Of a stretch of 64,000 nucleotides of DNA, positions 12,001-30,000 are shown piece by piece (position 1 is the stretch's first letter; each line of letters opens with the position of its first letter). Made by a program: the position numbers. Source of the stretch: Candidatus Poribacteria bacterium (lineage in GTDB: Bacteria > Poribacteria > WGA-4E > PCPOR2b); contig OZ242326.1 of the NCBI GenBank assembly GCA_965208325.1, positions 2,304,001 to 2,368,000 of the forward strand, read 5' to 3'.

Positions 12001-15000
12001 GAGCGAACAGCGGCTGCGATAGTTTTCAAGTGTCTTCACTAGTCTTATACAACAAAGTCCACCGCTTTTATGCCCTGCCTAGGAAAATTTTGTGATTTTT
12101 TACGCTTAATCCTCGTTACCTCCATCTCCCATGTCCTTCCTGAGAACGAATATACTTTCCAATTCACGCTTGACGCCATATCCGCCGTTTGTTAAACTGC
12201 CTACGGATTACTTTCTGGTTCGGCGAGTTTTGAATGAATTCCGCATTTGTTTCGTGATAGCGAAACCCAACGCTTTTTTCGGTCCAGATACCCAAAAAGC
12301 GTTGGGTATTGCGCCATGTATAAATGTTGACGTGCATTGTTTGGTAATTGACACCACGAATGACATAAGAATTTGATTTTCTAATGCTTAGGAATCGGCA
12401 GCTGATAGGGTTTGGAATAAAGGGATAGTAGAGAGCACAACTAACATCGACAGGGATGAAATGGACCTTCTAGCGAAACGTCAGATTGTAATTTTAGCTG
12501 CATTTATGTTTCTTTTAGTTCAGAGTTTGACTTATGGCGAAACAACGGTTTCAATGAGTCCGTCTACCGTGGAGTCCCCCGCCGTTGGGCAGCAGTTGAG
12601 TTTCAGTATCAACATTACGGGCGGAATAGATGTATCGTATTTTAGGGTAACCTTGACATTTGATCCAACGGCGCTCTCGTATGTCAGCATTTCATCCGGA
12701 GGTTACCTCGGCAATACGGTGTCTGACGATACCCAGACCACTTATGATTCAATAAGATACCGAGAATCAATCAGCACTGGGGTAGACGGGGACGGCACGT
12801 TTGCCACTGTTACCTTTACAGTCCTTGAGGCCAAAGACTCCACAATCGGACTGTCAGCCGGTCTTATTAACTCAACGAACAATTTAATAGATAAAACAGT
12901 CGAAGGTGCTACCATTACTAGTCCGCAAACGACTGGAATATCCATCAGTATAGTAAGCAGCCCGGGGTCTGGAAATCCCGGCGACGATTTGACGTATACG
13001 GTTGAGGTTCAGGAGGACGGAACCGCCGCCTCTGGTAAAACAGTCTCCTTTAGCATCACTTCCGGCGATGGGAATGCGTCTCTGAACCCCGCAAGCGCAA
13101 CAACCGACACCGATGGACAAGCTTCCACGACTATAACGCTTGGACAAAATGCGTCCGGATTCTATACAGTTACGGCAACCGTCGACTCCAAATCTATCAG
13201 CGGTGCTGCAAAAGTTATCCCTCTGCCCGCAGAAATTTCAATGAGTCCGTCTAGTGTGGAGTCCCCCGCCGTTGGACAGCAGTTGAGTTTCAGTATCAAT
13301 ATTAAGGGCGGAATAGATGTGTCGTATTTTAGGGTAACCTTGACATTTGATCCAACGGCGCTCTCGTATGTCAGCATTTCATCCGGAGGTTACCTCGGCA
13401 ATACGGTGTCTGACGATACCCAGACCACCAATGATTCAGTAAAATACCGAGAATCAATCAGCACTGGGGTAGACGGGGACGGCACGTTTGCCACTGTTAC
13501 CTTTACAGTCCTTGAGGCCAAAGACTCCACAATCGGACTGTCAGCCGGTCTTATTAACTCAACGAACAATTTAATAGATAAAACAGTCGAAGGTGCTACC
13601 ATTACTAGTCCGCAAACGACTGGAATATCCATCAGTATAGTAAGCAGCCCGGGGTCTGGAAATCCCGGTGACGATTTGACGTATACGGTTGAGGTTCAGG
13701 AGGACGGAACCGCCGCCTCTGGTAAAACAGTCTCCTTTAGCATCACTTCCGGCGATGGGAATGCGTCTCTGAACCCCGCAAGCGCAACAACCGACACCGA
13801 TGGACAAGCTTCCACGACTATAACGCTTGGACAAAATGCGTCCGGATTCTATACAGTTACGGCAACCGTCGACTCCAAATCTATCAGCGGTGCTGCAAAA
13901 GTTATCCCTCTGCCCGCAGAAATTTCAATGAGTCCGTCTAGTGTGGAGTCCCCCGCCGTTGGACAGCAGTTGAGTTTCAGTATCAATATTAAGGGCGGAA
14001 TAGATGTGTCGTATTTTAGGGTAACCTTGACATTTGATCCAACGGCGCTCTCGTATGTCAGCATTTCATCCGGAGGTTACCTCGGCAATACGGTGTCTGA
14101 CGATACCCAGACCACCAATGATTCAATAAGATACCGAGAATCAATCAGCACTGGGGTAAACGGGGACGGCACGTTTGCCACTGTTACCTTTACAGTCCTT
14201 GAGGCCAAAGACTCCACAATCGGACTGTCAGCCGGTCTTATTAACTCAACGAACAATTTTATAGATAAAACAGTCGAAGGCGCTGCGATTACTAGTCCGC
14301 AAACGACTGGATTATCCATCAGTATAGTAAGCAGCCCGGGGTCTGGAAATCCCGGTGACGATTTGACGTATACGGTTGAGGTTAAGGAGGACGGTAGCGC
14401 CGCTTCAGGAAAAACAGTCTCCTTTAGCATCACTTCCGGCGATGGGAATGCGTCTCTGAACCCCGCAAGCGCAACAACCGACACCGATGGACAAGCTTCC
14501 ACGACCATAACGCTTGGACAAAATGCTTCCGGCTCATATACAGTTACTGCAACCGTCGGCTCCAAATCTATCACAGGTACGGCAACGGTTAACCCGCCGC
14601 CTACGGGAGTTACCATCAGTGTAGTGACTGCACCAGGATCTGGCGACCCCGGCGACGAATTGACGTTTACAGTTGAGGTGCAGGAGGACGGAAGTGCCGC
14701 CTCTGGAAAAACAGTGTCATTCAGTATCACTTCAGGCGATGGAAATGCGTCTCTGAACCCTACAAGCTCAACAACCGACACCAATGGACAGGCTTCCACT
14801 ACGATAACACTCGGAAACAATGCGTCCGGAATCTATATGGTTACTGCAACCGTCGACTCCGAATCCGTTAACGGTGCCGCAACAGTTACCCATCCGCCTG
14901 CGCAAATTTCAATGAGTCCGTCAACCGTAGAGTCCCCCGCCGTTGGACAGCAGTTGACTTTCAGTATCAATATTAAGGGCGGGATAGATGTGATGAGTTA

Positions 15001-27000: not shown

Positions 27001-30000
27001 CTCGGCAGTGGGGCGCGCGATAGCACCAGCACCATAAACAATTCCGTATTGTACAGCGAACAAATTACCACTGGTGCAGGAGGGGATGGGGATGGCACAC
27101 TTGCCACAGTGACCTTTACCGTCCTAGAGGTCAAGGACTCCACACTAACGCTCGAAGCCAACCTAAGCAACTCATCGTCACATGCAATAGATAAAACCGT
27201 AGAAGGCGCCGCGATTACGATTCCGCCGGAGCCAGTAACACCGTCAGGATTATCAATAAGTGTAGTAACCAGTCCGGGGTCAGGTAACCCCGGTGACGAG
27301 CTGACGTTCACTGTTCAGGTGCAGGAGGACGGAAGCGCCGCATCAGGAAAATCAGTGTCATTCAGTATCACTTCCGGCGATGGAAATGCATCTCTGAACC
27401 CCGCCAGCGCAACCACCGATACCAATGGACAAGCTTCCACTACATTAACGCTCGGAAACAATGCCGCCGGTTCCTACACAGTTACTGCGGCGGTCGGCAC
27501 GGAGTCTGTCAGTGCAGCCGCAACGGTTCAAACGACAATGACCGATCAGAAGAAGGACAATCAACAACAACCGCAGACAGGATTAACGATTAGTGTAGTA
27601 AGCAGTCCCGGAACTGGCAATCCCGGTGACACATTGACGTTTGCTGTCGAGGTTCAGGCGGACGGGAGCGCCGCTTCAGGAAAAACAGTGTCGTTTAGTA
27701 TCACCTCCAGCGATGGTAATGCGTCTTTGAATCCCGAAAGCGCTGCGACGGATACCAAAGGGCGGGCTTCAACAACAATAACACTTGGGGAAAATGCTGC
27801 TGGCTCATACAGAGTTACTGCGGCGGTCGGTACGGAGACTGTCAGCTCGACAGTAACCGTTGAAACGTCAACAACTACCTCGCCGACGCCCAAAACTCTG
27901 GCGGAGGTTTCCGGCAATAATCAGAGCGCCTTGACCGGTAAAGCGTTGGCTAATCCCTTCGTCGTTAAAATTCTAGATCAGCATGACAACCTGTTGGAAG
28001 GAGTCACTGTAACTTTTTCTGTCACCGCAGGCGGCGGTTCGTTGAGCCGTACAAGCTTAGACACGGATGCCGACGGATTAGCAAAAAGCACCCTGGCGCT
28101 TGGCAGCGAGCCGGGTACAAACACGGTTACGGCAAGTGTCGAAGGAATCGCCGAAACCGTAACCTTTAACGCTGTCGCTGAACTGCTCGAATTTGACCTC
28201 TCAGTGCCTTCCGGTACTAGCTTGATTCACGTGCCGCTAAAAACCAGGACGGTTGACGGGACAACTGCCGCCATCAATTCAATCGCTGACCTGTACGACG
28301 CGCTTGGCGGCGCAGATACGGTTAAGCTCCTTATTACATATAACCGAAATACGCAACAGTGGAATAGCTACCTCGGTGCGGGAAGTAAAGGAGGTACGGC
28401 GGATAGAGCCTTGGCGGCGGACCTTGGAATCGTCGCCAGCTTGAAGTCATCCGTAACCATTCGTATCGGAGGCGACCAACTCGGTTCGGGCGGAACGAGC
28501 ACGATAGGCTTAATCCAAGGCAAGAATCTAATCGGATTGCCGCTGAGGGATTCAAGGATTTCTCGTGTTAGCGACTTGCTTACGCTTGACGGCATTGCCG
28601 ACAACGCGGATGCCGTTACTGTTTCGGTTAACGGATCATTCACGCCGGTTGCGCAAGCCGGCGATGCAGGAGATACTGCAATCACGGGCGGACAAGCCTT
28701 TATCCTCGACGTTTCAAATAATGCGTCGGTTTCTATCTCCGGCAAGGGGTGGGGTAACACTCCCGCCAACACTATGGCTGCGCCGCTGTTGGCGGCGGAG
28801 GACATTAACGTAACTGGAACCACGCCTGTGTTAGCGATGACCGGTGCGATTGTCCACCGTGTGAAAACTACCAATGGAAGAATATTGCGTGTTATCGTCA
28901 AAAACCTCTCAACCGGCATTACCGTAAACAAGGTTATTGAAGTGGCAGGCGGTACTGCATCGTACGTCGCTTATCAACTTACTGTTGTTGATATAAAGCA
29001 CGGACGAGCAGCGGCGATAGGTGATATCCTTGAAATATCCGCCGTTTCTACCGATAACTCTATCAGCGCGCCGCCGCTGCGATACACTGTTACGGCTGAA
29101 GATGTCAAGACCAACCGGATTCAGTCGCCCGAACTAATAGTCCAAGCCATACCTAAGGAAACGCAACTGTTGCCGAACTACCCGAATCCGTTCAACCCGG
29201 AGACCTGGATTCCCTACCGGTTAGCCAACGCTGCCGAGGTGACGTTGGAAATCTACGACGCCGCGGGCAACTTGGTGCGGACCATTGATGTCGGCTTCAA
29301 ACCCGCCGCTGCGTACGATTCGCGTGCCTCGGCGATATACTGGGATGGCCGCAACAACTATGGTGAACCCATCGCCAGCGGCGTGTATTTCTATCACCTG
29401 TTTACGGACGCCTTTTCTGCCGCGCGCAAGATGCTCATCTTGAAATAGTATCAGTTCCCCATTTGAGTGAATGGGATAGACTCCTCTAGCCTTCTCCGAA
29501 ACCCAACGCGTTTTAAAACTCTGGACAACCCCACGGCAAATCAAGCCACCTCAAACACCAAAACTGCTCGTGAAAGAGCGTTTTGCCAGCCCGCCACTTT
29601 AATGGACTGCCCAGGTTTTGGGGATGATTTCCCTCAATCATACAAATCACAGTTCAGACAGTTCCTGCAGGTTGAGATTAACCGAGCGAATGAGCTGCAA
29701 ATGAGCTAATAACGAAGGATCAACCAAATGAATAGTGAGGACGCCTTCATTAGTTTAAAAATGCTTCTCCCACAGTGAGAACGCCTCGTCGGTTCATCCA
29801 ATCTTCATTCCCCTCCTTACCAAGGACGGGTTAGGGGAGGTCAAAAGTTTGGGGTAGGTTCAATCAAACCCCACTTGAATTCTTGTAGGTTGGGATCAAA
29901 TGAGCGAATAGCGAATGCGATAGTTTACCTTAGGGTTAAGCGATCAACCGACCGAATAGCGAGCGATCAAAGGAGCGAACAGCGACCGCGATAGTTTTTT

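Follow-up and report, generated by a model that had tools for sequence, protein, structure and literature searches.

Two adjacent giant genes of a Candidatus Poribacteria bacterium, here called ScaA-like and ScaB-like (ScaA and ScaB), encode proteins that, judged from their sequences, appear to be built like non-catalytic scaffoldins with several cohesins, and that probably hold the ten dockerin proteins of the same genome at the cell surface. We consider the whole reading, in which surface scaffoldins bind ten dockerin proteins and represent a recent, lineage-specific build, to be moderately likely. Poribacteria are dominant and uncultured symbionts of sponges. That they secrete many eukaryote-like repeat proteins has been on record since 2014, and how these are held or organised on the cell has lacked an explanation. 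A near-universal plug-and-socket system would be a concrete and testable answer. Of its forms found here, this locus, with two dedicated stalks that bear 14 sockets, is the most elaborate. The window analysed is a stretch of 64,000 nt from assembly GCA_965208325.1 (OZ242326.1, 2,304,001–2,368,000; window position 1 is 2,304,001).

Two giant genes and their modules

The initial annotation described two adjacent giant proteins with nine and five cohesins, and both the open reading frames and the Pfam Cohesin stretches (9 + 5) bear this out (Table 1). ScaA consists of a signal peptide, CICICIICICICIIICICICII (C, cohesin; I, Ig), a single canonical Big_1 domain, a pre-CTD module and a sorting domain, and ScaB of CICIIIIIIICICICII with the same three elements after it. 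The two are tandem paralogues, 92% identical over the last 620 aa of the C-terminus; the protein-database form of ScaB has 2408 aa. Pfam finds 14 Big_1 stretches in ScaA and 13 in ScaB together with Invasin_D3 matches, and the Ig modules of ScaA show a tandem period of 297 bp at 16763–17526. The Pfam families matched by ScaA (17) and ScaB (19) include neither a CBM nor an enzyme family. The pre-CTD module recurs in dockerin-less sorting-domain proteins of the same genome (n = 14 aligned).

Table 1. Features of the scaffoldin-like locus (window positions) and dockerin proteins added to the first seven (genome positions)
Feature	Position	Strand	Details
ScaA-like scaffoldin-like gene	12461..21643	+	3060 aa; ORF, translation, Pfam/NCBIfam
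ScaA cohesins 1–3	12542..14305 (12542-12931, 13223-13618, 13910-14305)	+	Mutual identity 93–96%; Ig module after each
ScaA thirteen Ig modules (span)	12926..20059	+	About 98 aa each; 'PGSGNPGD' anchor; Big_1/Invasin_D3-like; alternating with cohesins
ScaA cohesins 4–9	14897..19432	+	Mutual identity 71–100%; Ig modules between
ScaA cohesins 4, 5, 6	14897-15304, 15590-16012, 16307-16720	+	
ScaA cohesins 7, 8, 9	17594-18013, 18302-18721, 19010-19432	+	Cohesin 7 = cohesin 9
ScaA canonical Big_1 domain	20114..20359	+	aa 2552-2633; Pfam
ScaA pre-CTD module	20360..21370	+	Without Pfam family; all-beta, three sandwich-like parts
ScaA T9SS type-A-like C-terminal sorting domain	21371..21640	+	Begins 'NYPNPFNPETW', 90 aa before end
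ScaB-like paralogue gene	22201..29448	+	2415 aa from GTG start
ScaB cohesins 1–2	22288..23364 (22288-22680, 22951-23364)	+	Mutual identity 70%
ScaB seven tandem Ig modules	23353..25428	+	297-bp period, 6.9 copies, 87% matches
ScaB cohesins 3–5	25426..27231 (25426-25827, 26116-26526, 26833-27231)	+	Ig module after each
ScaB canonical Big_1 domain	27919..28167	+	aa 1907-1989; Pfam
ScaB pre-CTD module	28165..29175	+	
ScaB T9SS type-A-like sorting domain	29176..29445	+	Pfam/NCBIfam
Dockerin protein	1467835-1469430		Dockerin_1 genome scan
Dockerin protein	2883804-2886557		Dockerin_1 genome scan
Dockerin protein	2886692-2889616		Dockerin_1 genome scan

Identity of the cohesin modules

Whole-protein scores for Cohesin (PF00963) reach 178.7 bits in ScaA and 93.8 bits in ScaB (cut-off 24.1), and taken one by one in the genome scan, the 14 modules score 34.8–46.4 bits. 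Pfam matches 16 cohesins in the whole genome, 14 in the giants and one in each of two 349-aa proteins, and an HMM from the cassettes of other genomes adds two that Pfam missed, which gives 18 cohesins in six proteins. Searched against the PDB, a profile of the giants' cohesins picks out chains of cellulosomal cohesins, with a best E of 1.3e-6. For the fold, the window's modules are represented by a poribacterial relative (locus L087, 39–45% identical to them), whose AF2 model has a mean pLDDT of 89.9 and is predicted to adopt the flattened beta-sandwich (jelly-roll) of cohesins. Compared with the PDB, this model gives 207 matches (E ≤ 1e-3), and almost all of those listed are cohesin chains. 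The best of them is 2xdh, a non-cellulosomal cohesin (E 6.4e-13, TM 0.81); cohesins of types I, II and III come next, and sequence identity in these fold matches is only 12–23%.

The giants might instead be ordinary invasin/intimin-like stalk adhesins, in which the cohesins are beta-sandwich spacers or direct ligand binders and bind no dockerin; we judge this unlikely. Like invasin/intimin-type arrays they carry long series of Big_1 and Invasin_D3 matches, and their closest full-length homologues are annotated 'Ig-like domain-containing protein' and 'adhesin/invasin'. The best same-genus homologues (1604 and 1932 aa) are pure Big_1 arrays without cohesin that have the same tail and share 66–67% identity with the giants over the C-terminal part. 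Among the similar proteins of 1683–5355 aa found by searching 5.8 billion proteins, no other one bears a cohesin, 9 of the 11 hits being Ig arrays without cohesin, and the long stem of the giants' cohesin clade (0.75 in the tree) indicates that these modules diverged from their relatives. Against the adhesin interpretation, the sole role of the cohesin family known to us is that of dockerin receptor, the copies are conserved (54–100% identity, 31 invariant columns), ten intact dockerins with complete calcium loops occur in the genome, and the two domains co-occur across the phylum. Unlike invasin and intimin, the giants have neither a beta-barrel anchor nor a C-type lectin tip, their array is interrupted by cohesins, and their tail is of T9SS type.

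Dockerin proteins and their cargo

Seven dockerin proteins had been reported at the outset; such proteins are indeed present, and the genome scan raises their number to ten, an identical set being recovered by the HMM from other genomes' cassettes. All ten matches to Dockerin type I (PF00404) are over the cut-off, the weakest only jointly with its neighbours (25.4 bits, against 22.6 alone), and hmmscan of the whole proteins places one at 21.7 bits (below 22.9) and does not list another. With an HMM from poribacterial dockerins, these ten included, all ten score 58–78 bits. Every repeat (20/20) has D/N at positions 1, 3, 5, 9 and 12, which we take to be the calcium positions of the F-hand repeats of about 22 residues, as in C. 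thermocellum dockerins. Spacers measure 5–10 residues, and the paired repeats of one dockerin are identical at 10–16 of 22 residues. A profile of the ten dockerins hits chain 2y3n_B, a Cel48 dockerin (E 5e-12), and one dockerin gene lies immediately upstream of a cohesin gene in the same genome. We infer that cohesins and dockerins bind each other; the modules of both kinds are small and expressible, so that a matrix of their binding could be tested without culture.

A tail cassette of dockerin, helical linker and sorting domain is common to all ten proteins. Pfam agrees with the cadherin, WD40 and FGE-sulfatase-like cargo first named and shows a wider range: WD40 in two proteins, cadherin (a protein of 2533 aa), FGE-sulfatase in two, TIG, CARDB with LDL-receptor class B, and Big_1 with LRR and a reprolysin-like domain; YWTD and YVTN domains are also counted among the cargo. 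The description as adhesion modules instead of enzymes stands for glycoside hydrolases, since 0/10 proteins carry such a family at E ≤ 1e-3 as had been claimed, but it is too broad for enzymes in general. A HExxH motif occurs in three of the ten, one of these having reprolysin-like Pfam hits, and in another poribacterial genome (71 dockerin matches in total) 5 of the 29 examined join dockerins to a sulfatase, a GHL15 domain or metallopeptidase-like domains.

Sorting domain and probable export route

Most of these proteins were said to end in a T9SS sorting domain, and one and the same such domain closes both giants and every one of the ten dockerin proteins; it is absent from the two cohesin proteins of 349 aa. 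Scores for PF18962 (Por_Secre_tail) are 58.8 bits in ScaA and 67.7 bits in ScaB (cut-off 27), and for TIGR04183 34.2 bits in ScaA and 21.0 bits in ScaB, the latter under the cut-off of 23. The sorting motif appears in 46 frames genome-wide, in 43 of them exactly 90 aa from the end. PorV is encoded (63.8 bits, above cut-off), two Peptidase_C25 giants reach 282 and 257 bits with the PorU model, under its cut-off of 420, and an SprA-like protein of 2188 aa shows four collinear sub-threshold pieces (SprA_N 22.8 bits, cut-off 27). The T9SS motor proteins GldL and GldM (GldM_1st) have zero matches in the genome, and the control genomes are equally silent.

As both cargo and scaffold have the sorting domain, both may be tethered, and free capture would be less simple than in cellulosomes. 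Pairing could then link tethered surface proteins into a coat, or neighbouring cells into microcolonies, rather than collect free subunits, a possibility to which we assign a rather small probability. The sorting domain on 12/12 proteins is in keeping with it, and so is the usual form in relatives, where cohesin, dockerin and sorting domain stand in one chain that fits a chain or lattice; a local example is a WD40 protein with a cohesin of 65.7 bits (HMM) adjoining its own dockerin. However, T9SS cargo may also be freed by tail cleavage, and four of the 29 dockerin proteins examined in the other genome (DUF6259) stop at the dockerin and have no sorting domain; the present data suit tethered and released proteins alike.

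In the scaffoldin reading that we prefer, ScaA and ScaB would be non-catalytic, all-beta proteins exported by a signal peptide and taken across the outer membrane along a T9SS-like pathway that reads the C-terminal sorting domain. The Ig modules and the three-sandwich pre-CTD module would form a long surface stalk with nine and five cohesin sockets, which would take the dockerin plugs of the ten proteins in a calcium-dependent manner. WD40, YVTN and YWTD propellers, the large cadherin protein, LRR, TIG, FGE-sulfatase-like and HExxH metallopeptidase-like cargo would be plugged in, and the outcome would be a multivalent surface display of binding modules plus a few enzymes.

Distribution in the phylum and origin

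That both domains are near-universal in the phylum is confirmed, with Cohesin in 174/176 and Dockerin_1 in 176/176 genomes (own included), and each in 2/14 control genomes. The scaffold itself, which had been thought conserved through the whole phylum, is not: beside the same-genus homologues above, five sampled genomes have a maximum of 3 cohesins per frame and 79 related loci a maximum of 2. Sister species have 12–18 dockerin matches, only 5–10 cohesin matches and no such scaffold, and their dockerins thus do not depend on it. In many relatives the cohesin adjoins the dockerin within one polypeptide, and elsewhere in the phylum the cassette of cohesin, dockerin and sorting domain is found on LRR and WD40 proteins. 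Their tail of dockerin, linker and sorting domain and their two cohesin subtypes are those of the present system; they have one cohesin adjoining the dockerin at the membrane-proximal end of the cargo, whereas the giants have 14 on dedicated stalks without dockerin.

The 14 cohesins form a single clade (SH-aLRT 100) and were thus amplified locally. Their sister group consists of proteins of 500–970 aa whose only cohesin is N-terminal and which also have the giants' pre-CTD module and a sorting domain. We propose that one ancestral cohesin, N-terminal in a surface protein with a sorting domain, was fused to a Big_1 array, that cohesin–Ig units were then amplified, and that the gene was afterwards duplicated. 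The locus would also illustrate the quick origin of a scaffoldin from an Ig-array adhesin through module amplification.

Comparison with known systems

Clostridial scaffoldins (C. thermocellum CipA; ScaA/ScaB of A. cellulolyticus and P. cellulosolvens) likewise bear many cohesins on a non-catalytic backbone, and in clostridial cellulosomes, as here, dockerins have two calcium repeats and outnumber scaffoldins. Chains from these organisms are the best sequence matches of the cohesins and dockerins in the PDB and among the best fold matches. Of the marks of a cellulosome, a non-catalytic scaffoldin with several cohesins is present, and neither glycoside-hydrolase cargo (0/10) nor a scaffoldin CBM was found. 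Unlike clostridial cellulosomes, the Poribacterium is without SLH or sortase anchoring, has a Gram-negative envelope and a T9SS-type tail, and sequence similarity is low (12–23% identity in the fold matches above). Cohesin–dockerin modules outside cellulosomes are reportedly the subject of a 2009 review by Peer et al. The structures 2xdh, an Archaeoglobus fulgidus cohesin, and 2jh2 and 2w1n, cohesin-like modules of Clostridium perfringens, resemble the present case in their use outside plant-cell-wall degradation, but in those systems a protein has one module or a few, in contrast to the arrays of nine and five.

The suggestion that such a machine would be new is overstated; a multi-cohesin scaffoldin with a T9SS tail was published in 2021 from Cloacimonadota. 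There, Ca. Stygibacter has a non-catalytic scaffoldin-like protein of 3755 aa, inferred from MAGs only, in which tandem cohesins are combined with a C-terminal domain of T9SS type; it carries CBM2/CBM3, and most of the partner proteins with dockerins are enzymes (GH18, GH57, S8 and C25 peptidases), beside some non-enzymatic, halomucin-like ones (Williams et al., 2021; PMC8542988). Both are Gram-negative, non-Firmicute lineages with a giant tandem-cohesin protein ending in a T9SS tail and with partly non-enzymatic partners, and Poribacteria would be the second Gram-negative lineage beside this one published case; the poribacterial system differs in having Big_1-type Ig spacers, no CBM found and dockerins without glycoside hydrolase. 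The cellulosome-like design without cellulases is real, yet it is a local elaboration of a system known elsewhere. As to the early caution that single-cell studies of Poribacteria may have mentioned the domains, supplementary tables of one paper (PMC3909097) list Dockerin type I for single-cell genomes of the phylum.

Array length and sponge contact

The numbers nine and five might in part have arisen from misassembly of near-identical repeats, in genes that are real but of uncertain or strain-variable valency; we consider this improbable. Against it, the genome is a single 4.7-Mb contig, most repeat copies are distinct enough (71–96%) for placement, and contigs of run X1 span 29/30 bins with 188/411 aligned pieces at least 99% alike. 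In its favour, ScaA cohesin 7 agrees with cohesin 9 at 100% identity and cohesin 8 with both at 99%, run X5 has zero depth over 22149–26924, and the copy numbers come from one assembly compared with short contigs only. One contig from sponge metagenome X6 joins 15302 to 19439 and so omits 4136 bases, and skipping these 4.1 kb of the array suggests that valency may vary among strains. A more speculative idea, to which we give a low probability, is that the locus encodes a host-interaction organelle, a 14-socket surface rack for the multivalent mounting of eukaryote-like binding proteins (cadherin, WD40, YWTD and LRR), by which the symbiont would hold on to sponge cells or matrix or be recognised by them, built in one species lineage by cohesin–Ig amplification and possibly with strain-variable valency. 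The locus is present in sponge metagenomes from at least five studies.

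Architecture of the two giant proteins

Pfam assigns nine Cohesin and 14 Big_1 stretches to the ScaA-like giant protein and five and 13 to its ScaB-like paralogue, so the adjacent nine- and five-cohesin giants of the initial annotation are confirmed; the protein database form of the latter has 2408 aa. Both C-termini match Por_Secre_tail (Pfam) and the T9SS type A sorting domain (NCBIfam). The order of modules was read by anchoring on conserved motifs, with C for a cohesin and I for an Ig module of ~98 aa, and is CICICIICICICIIICICICII in the ScaA-like and CICIIIIIIICICICII in the ScaB-like protein. 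In both giants a canonical Big_1 domain comes after the array, then a stretch of ~330 aa without Pfam family (here the pre-CTD module) and finally the sorting domain, and their C-terminal 620 residues are 92% identical. The cohesins form identity groups (ScaA c1–3, 93–96%; ScaA c4–9, 71–100%, with c7 identical to c9; ScaB c1–2, 70%; ScaB c3–5, 62–76%), and pairwise identity among all 14 is at least 54%.

Against the PDB, a profile of the window cohesins matches the A. cellulolyticus ScaB cohesin chains (best E 1.3e-6), and the dockerin profile matches the P. cellulosolvens Cel48 dockerin chain 2y3n_B (E 5e-12). The sequence chosen for folding was not one of the window's own modules; it was a natural cohesin-dockerin tandem of another poribacterial genome (locus L087), whose cohesin is of the ScaA subtype and 39–45% identical to the window's cohesins. 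The resulting model (mean pLDDT 89.9, pTM 0.73) has as its top structural match 2xdh, a non-cellulosomal cohesin of Archaeoglobus fulgidus (E 6.4e-13, TM 0.81); cellulosomal cohesins of types I, II and III rank next. The high pTM of the model is compatible with packing of the dockerin on the cohesin. It is established that cohesin and dockerin modules are widespread outside cellulosomes, as Peer and colleagues reportedly described in 2009.

The pre-CTD module is predicted to consist of three beta-sandwich-like parts (pLDDT 83.8, pTM 0.83). Foldseek returned generic tandem Ig/FnIII/pilin matches only, whose TM stays below 0.25 when the complete model is considered, and the ESM Atlas solely hypothetical proteins with sorting domains (top score 0.89). 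In the source genome 14 sorting-domain proteins without a dockerin align to this module, and two likely pseudogenes, paralogues of the C-terminal module of the giants, carry two and one in-frame TAG, respectively.

Coordinates of the features discussed (window positions, or contig positions where a genome and contig are named; G000:C1, contig of the source genome; G137, another poribacterial genome)
Feature	Position	Strand	Length	Remark
ScaA-like ORF	12461-21643	+	3060 aa	
ScaB-like ORF	22201-29448	+	2415 aa	from GTG
HEAT/PBS-lyase repeat protein	4100-5653	+		
FG-GAP_3 + UnbV_ASPIC protein	5821-7575	-		
TPR protein	7638-8912	-		
ORF of no family	30899-31852		317 aa	
Tyrosine recombinase with overlapping ORF	33135-35112	-		
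Laminin_G_3-cohesin-CarboxypepD_reg frame	G000:C1:2277358-2278860	-	500 aa	L129; ~25 kb upstream of window
YVTN-dockerin gene and 349-aa cohesin gene	G000:C1:3481704-3484845			L032, L038
PorV gene	G000:C1:164340-165338			over cut-off; adjoins lgt; L252-L255 set
Peptidase_C25 proteins (two)	G000:C1:4021620-4027895, 3715230-3721391		~2050-2090 aa	L252-L255 set
SprA-like protein	G000:C1:3089393-3095956		2188 aa	weak; L252-L255 set
Likely pseudogene, two TAG	G000:C1:3689361-3690899	-		
Likely pseudogene, one TAG	G000:C1:4690781-4691668	-		
Dockerin clusters	G137:C1:1750321-1760376, 3233663-3243611		~10 kb each	

Cohesins, dockerins and cargo across the genome

In the source assembly, a single 4.7-Mb contig that is 95.6% complete, Pfam matches 16 cohesins, of which 14 belong to the giants and the other two to separate secreted proteins of 349 aa. 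HMMs made from the cohesin-dockerin cassettes of other genomes add two cohesins missed by Pfam, which gives 18 in six proteins. One (65.7 bits; not recognised by Pfam at E ≤ 0.01) immediately precedes the dockerin in a WD40 protein, and the other (E 1.3e-18) belongs to a Laminin_G_3-cohesin-CarboxypepD_reg protein that lacks both dockerin and sorting domain. Dockerin_1 has ten matches, and the dockerin HMM returns the same ten proteins and no others. The initial inventory was therefore right in the giants, the two single-cohesin proteins and the seven dockerin proteins that it listed, and incomplete in both totals, three dockerin proteins having been missed.

The cargo joined to these dockerins comprises the WD40 protein with a cohesin, a protein of 13 WD40 repeats, a 2533-aa cadherin protein (six or more such domains, N-terminal HEIGH motif), two proteins with an FGE-sulfatase domain, one with two TIG domains, one with CARDB and LDL-receptor class B (YWTD) domains, a YVTN/YncE-type propeller (1l0q, E 2e-15), a Big_1 and LRR protein with a reprolysin-like HELGH domain, and an Ig/fn3 protein with a HEYAH motif. 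The HExxH-containing regions of two cargo proteins and the first ~740 aa of the larger FGE-sulfatase protein were searched against the PDB sequences, and none gave a match at E ≤ 0.1. All ten proteins share a three-part tail, in which the dockerin is followed by a helical linker of ~45 residues and by the sorting domain starting NYPNPFNPETW, and each of the 20 dockerin repeats has D or N at all five calcium positions.

Only once in the source genome are a dockerin gene and a cohesin gene paired: the gene of the YVTN propeller protein, with its dockerin and sorting domain, stands directly upstream of one 349-aa single-cohesin gene. The product of the latter has a signal peptide and a ~190-aa C-terminal part with no assigned family, and lacks the sorting domain. 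Atlas matches to the C-terminal half of the 349-aa proteins are poribacterial hypotheticals (0.91) and weak CBM_4_9-like matches (0.83), which we regard as leads only.

Sorting domain and putative T9SS-like export

Across the genome 46 frames contain the sorting-domain motif, in 43 of them at precisely 90 residues before the C-terminus, and these frames are the ten dockerin proteins, both giants and 34 others. The tail that the initial annotation saw on most of the proteins is present on every dockerin protein and both giants, and absent from the two 349-aa cohesin proteins. Our domain scan covered 32 of the 34 other frames (two short ones were left out) and found 16 WD40 propellers, two LRR proteins, one each of FG-GAP_2, LVIVD, PhoX and 5'-nucleotidase, and ten with a tail match only. 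Repeat proteins thus abound throughout the tail-bearing secretome, and in this the dockerin set does not stand out.

Candidate components of the export system are a PorV gene, two Peptidase_C25 proteins with sub-cut-off scores against the PorU model, and a SprA-like protein with collinear sub-threshold SprA matches. Both Peptidase_C25 proteins carry a sorting-type tail of their own, and a gene for a MoxR-type AAA ATPase follows one of them. The genome search gave no match to GldL or GldM, a result that is uninformative because the control genomes were silent too. In an earlier study a Por-type tail is already noted on poribacterial repeat proteins, and the structural genes of the system are stated not to have been found (Kamke et al., 2014; PMC3909097).

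Distribution and origin of the scaffold

Both domains are near-universal in the phylum, as had been claimed, with cohesin matches in 174 of 176 genomes (the two misses belong to one genus and are 91% and 89% complete) and dockerin matches in all 176. Many of these genomes have at least 34 dockerins scored and more than 100 candidates, so that the source genome is dockerin-poor. Cohesin patterns recovered 79 loci, of which 75 are titled Poribacteria, one uncultured bacterium and three archaea. At least five studies have sponge metagenomes that contain the locus of the giants, and no RNA datasets are listed with it.

The claim that the scaffold itself is conserved through the phylum does not hold. 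In five other genomes the cohesins are mostly single in frames of ~1300–1700 aa, with a maximum of three per frame; the seven such ORFs scanned comprise five of LRR-cohesin-dockerin form (sorting domain kept in four), one with three cohesins, a dockerin and the tail, and one with two cohesins alone. Across the 79 loci one cohesin is found in 87 frames, two in six and more than two in none, the commonest forms being cohesin plus tail (49) and cohesin, dockerin and tail (13). The best same-genus homologues of the C-terminal part of the giants (66–67% identity) are cohesin-free arrays of 11 and 15 Big_1 domains. A word-based search of a collection of 5.8 billion proteins (2716 candidates scored) found, among those of 1683–5355 aa, PF00963 together with this sequence only in the window's own two proteins, the other nine matches being Ig arrays, two with a dockerin. 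Over this sample of five genomes, 79 loci and the protein search, the multi-cohesin scaffold is a species-level novelty and not a trait of the phylum.

A quick maximum-likelihood tree of 107 cohesins places the 14 cohesins of the giants in one clade (SH-aLRT 100, stem 0.75), and its sister group (support 99) consists of proteins of 500–970 aa with a signal peptide, a single N-terminal cohesin, the pre-CTD module of the giants and the tail. In the simplest history, the N-terminal cohesin of a protein of the sister type would have been joined to a Big_1 array and amplified as cohesin-Ig units before the gene was duplicated.

The cargo elsewhere was surveyed in one complete poribacterial genome, in the best 29 of 71 dockerin matches, with up to 500 residues upstream of the dockerin visible. 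It comprises LRR (11, five of them also with a cohesin), WD40 (six), DUF6259 (four, with the dockerin closing the frame and no tail after it), DUF3108-like (two), one each of Sulfatase, Cu2_monoox_C, Big_5, FG-GAP/ASPIC and cohesin alone, and one with nothing else; GHL15, Reprolysin_5 and Metallopep occur once each on proteins already counted among the 29. The connector is thus general-purpose in the phylum, joined mostly to binding repeats and to some enzymes. In genome G137 dockerin matches are clustered in two stretches, and the four DUF6259 proteins are among those examined there. The proposal of adhesion modules instead of enzymes is accordingly to be narrowed: none of the ten dockerin proteins of the source genome carries a glycoside-hydrolase family, and the system is best read as a cellulosome-like assembly without cellulases, which partly supports the initial interpretation; a purely adhesive cargo is contradicted by the HExxH motifs and by the enzymes elsewhere.

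The design is not without precedent. Williams et al. (2021; PMC8542988) report from Ca. Stygibacter (Cloacimonadota) a scaffoldin-like protein of 3755 aa in which tandem cohesins are combined with CBM2/3 modules and a T9SS C-terminal domain; the dockerins there are attached to a halomucin-like protein and to enzymes (GH18, GH57, S8 and C25). That scaffold has in common with the giants the tandem cohesins and the T9SS-type tail. The initial annotation also suspected that earlier papers on Poribacteria might mention the domains, which is true of the dockerin, listed as pfam00404 "Dockerin type I repeat" with 13 genes in supplementary files 7 and 9 of Kamke et al. (2014; PMC3909097); the main text has no "cellulosom", and the supplements other than files 1 and 8 have no cohesin. 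In the open-access literature we found no relevant paper on Poribacteria and dockerin, Poribacteria and cohesin, or sponge-symbiont dockerins.

Proposed mode of action and alternatives

The data establish the identity of the domains, the architectures, the tail common to giants and partners, the co-occurrence of the two domain families and a recent amplification. Beyond this, we consider it somewhat probable that the giants leave the cell by a T9SS-like route and stand on its surface, where their 14 cohesins would bind, with calcium, the dockerins of the ten partner proteins, the outcome being a multivalent display of these partners. Given the types of cargo and the habitat, the system may plausibly mediate contact with sponge cells or matrix.

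That the cohesins are structural, or bind other ligands, seems unlikely to us, though it is the strongest of the alternatives. A complex prediction for a single pair, ScaA cohesin 7 with the dockerin of the 13-WD40 protein, scored 0.00 and speaks neither for nor against binding. A slightly smaller chance is given to a pairing that ties tethered proteins into a coat, or cell to cell, rather than capturing free subunits, a reading that follows from the sorting domain on all partners and on both giants. It is improbable that the copy numbers are partly an artefact or strain-variable. Contigs of four runs were aligned to the locus, and being short they leave the repeat copy number unconfirmed; bins without depth in two of the runs, X5 and X6, are not evidence on it. 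In X6, another sponge metagenome, one contig joins 15302 to 19439, omitting 4136 bases of the cohesin-Ig array, and this joint may reflect either a strain with fewer repeats or short-read collapse.

Genomic neighbourhood

An operon of the giants with partner genes was considered and rejected, as the genes around them in the window (TauE, a nuclease, a HicB-like ORF and an integrase) are all unrelated. A tyrosine recombinase, Phage_integrase by family and with a SAM-like domain at its N-terminus, lies about 4 kb downstream of the ScaB-like gene and overlaps a 350-aa ORF of no family, and a further ORF of no family is also found in the window. Upstream, three consecutive genes at 4100-8912 encode repeat proteins of the HEAT/PBS-lyase, FG-GAP_3 and TPR types, a kind of eukaryote-like repeat gene that is typical of sponge symbionts.
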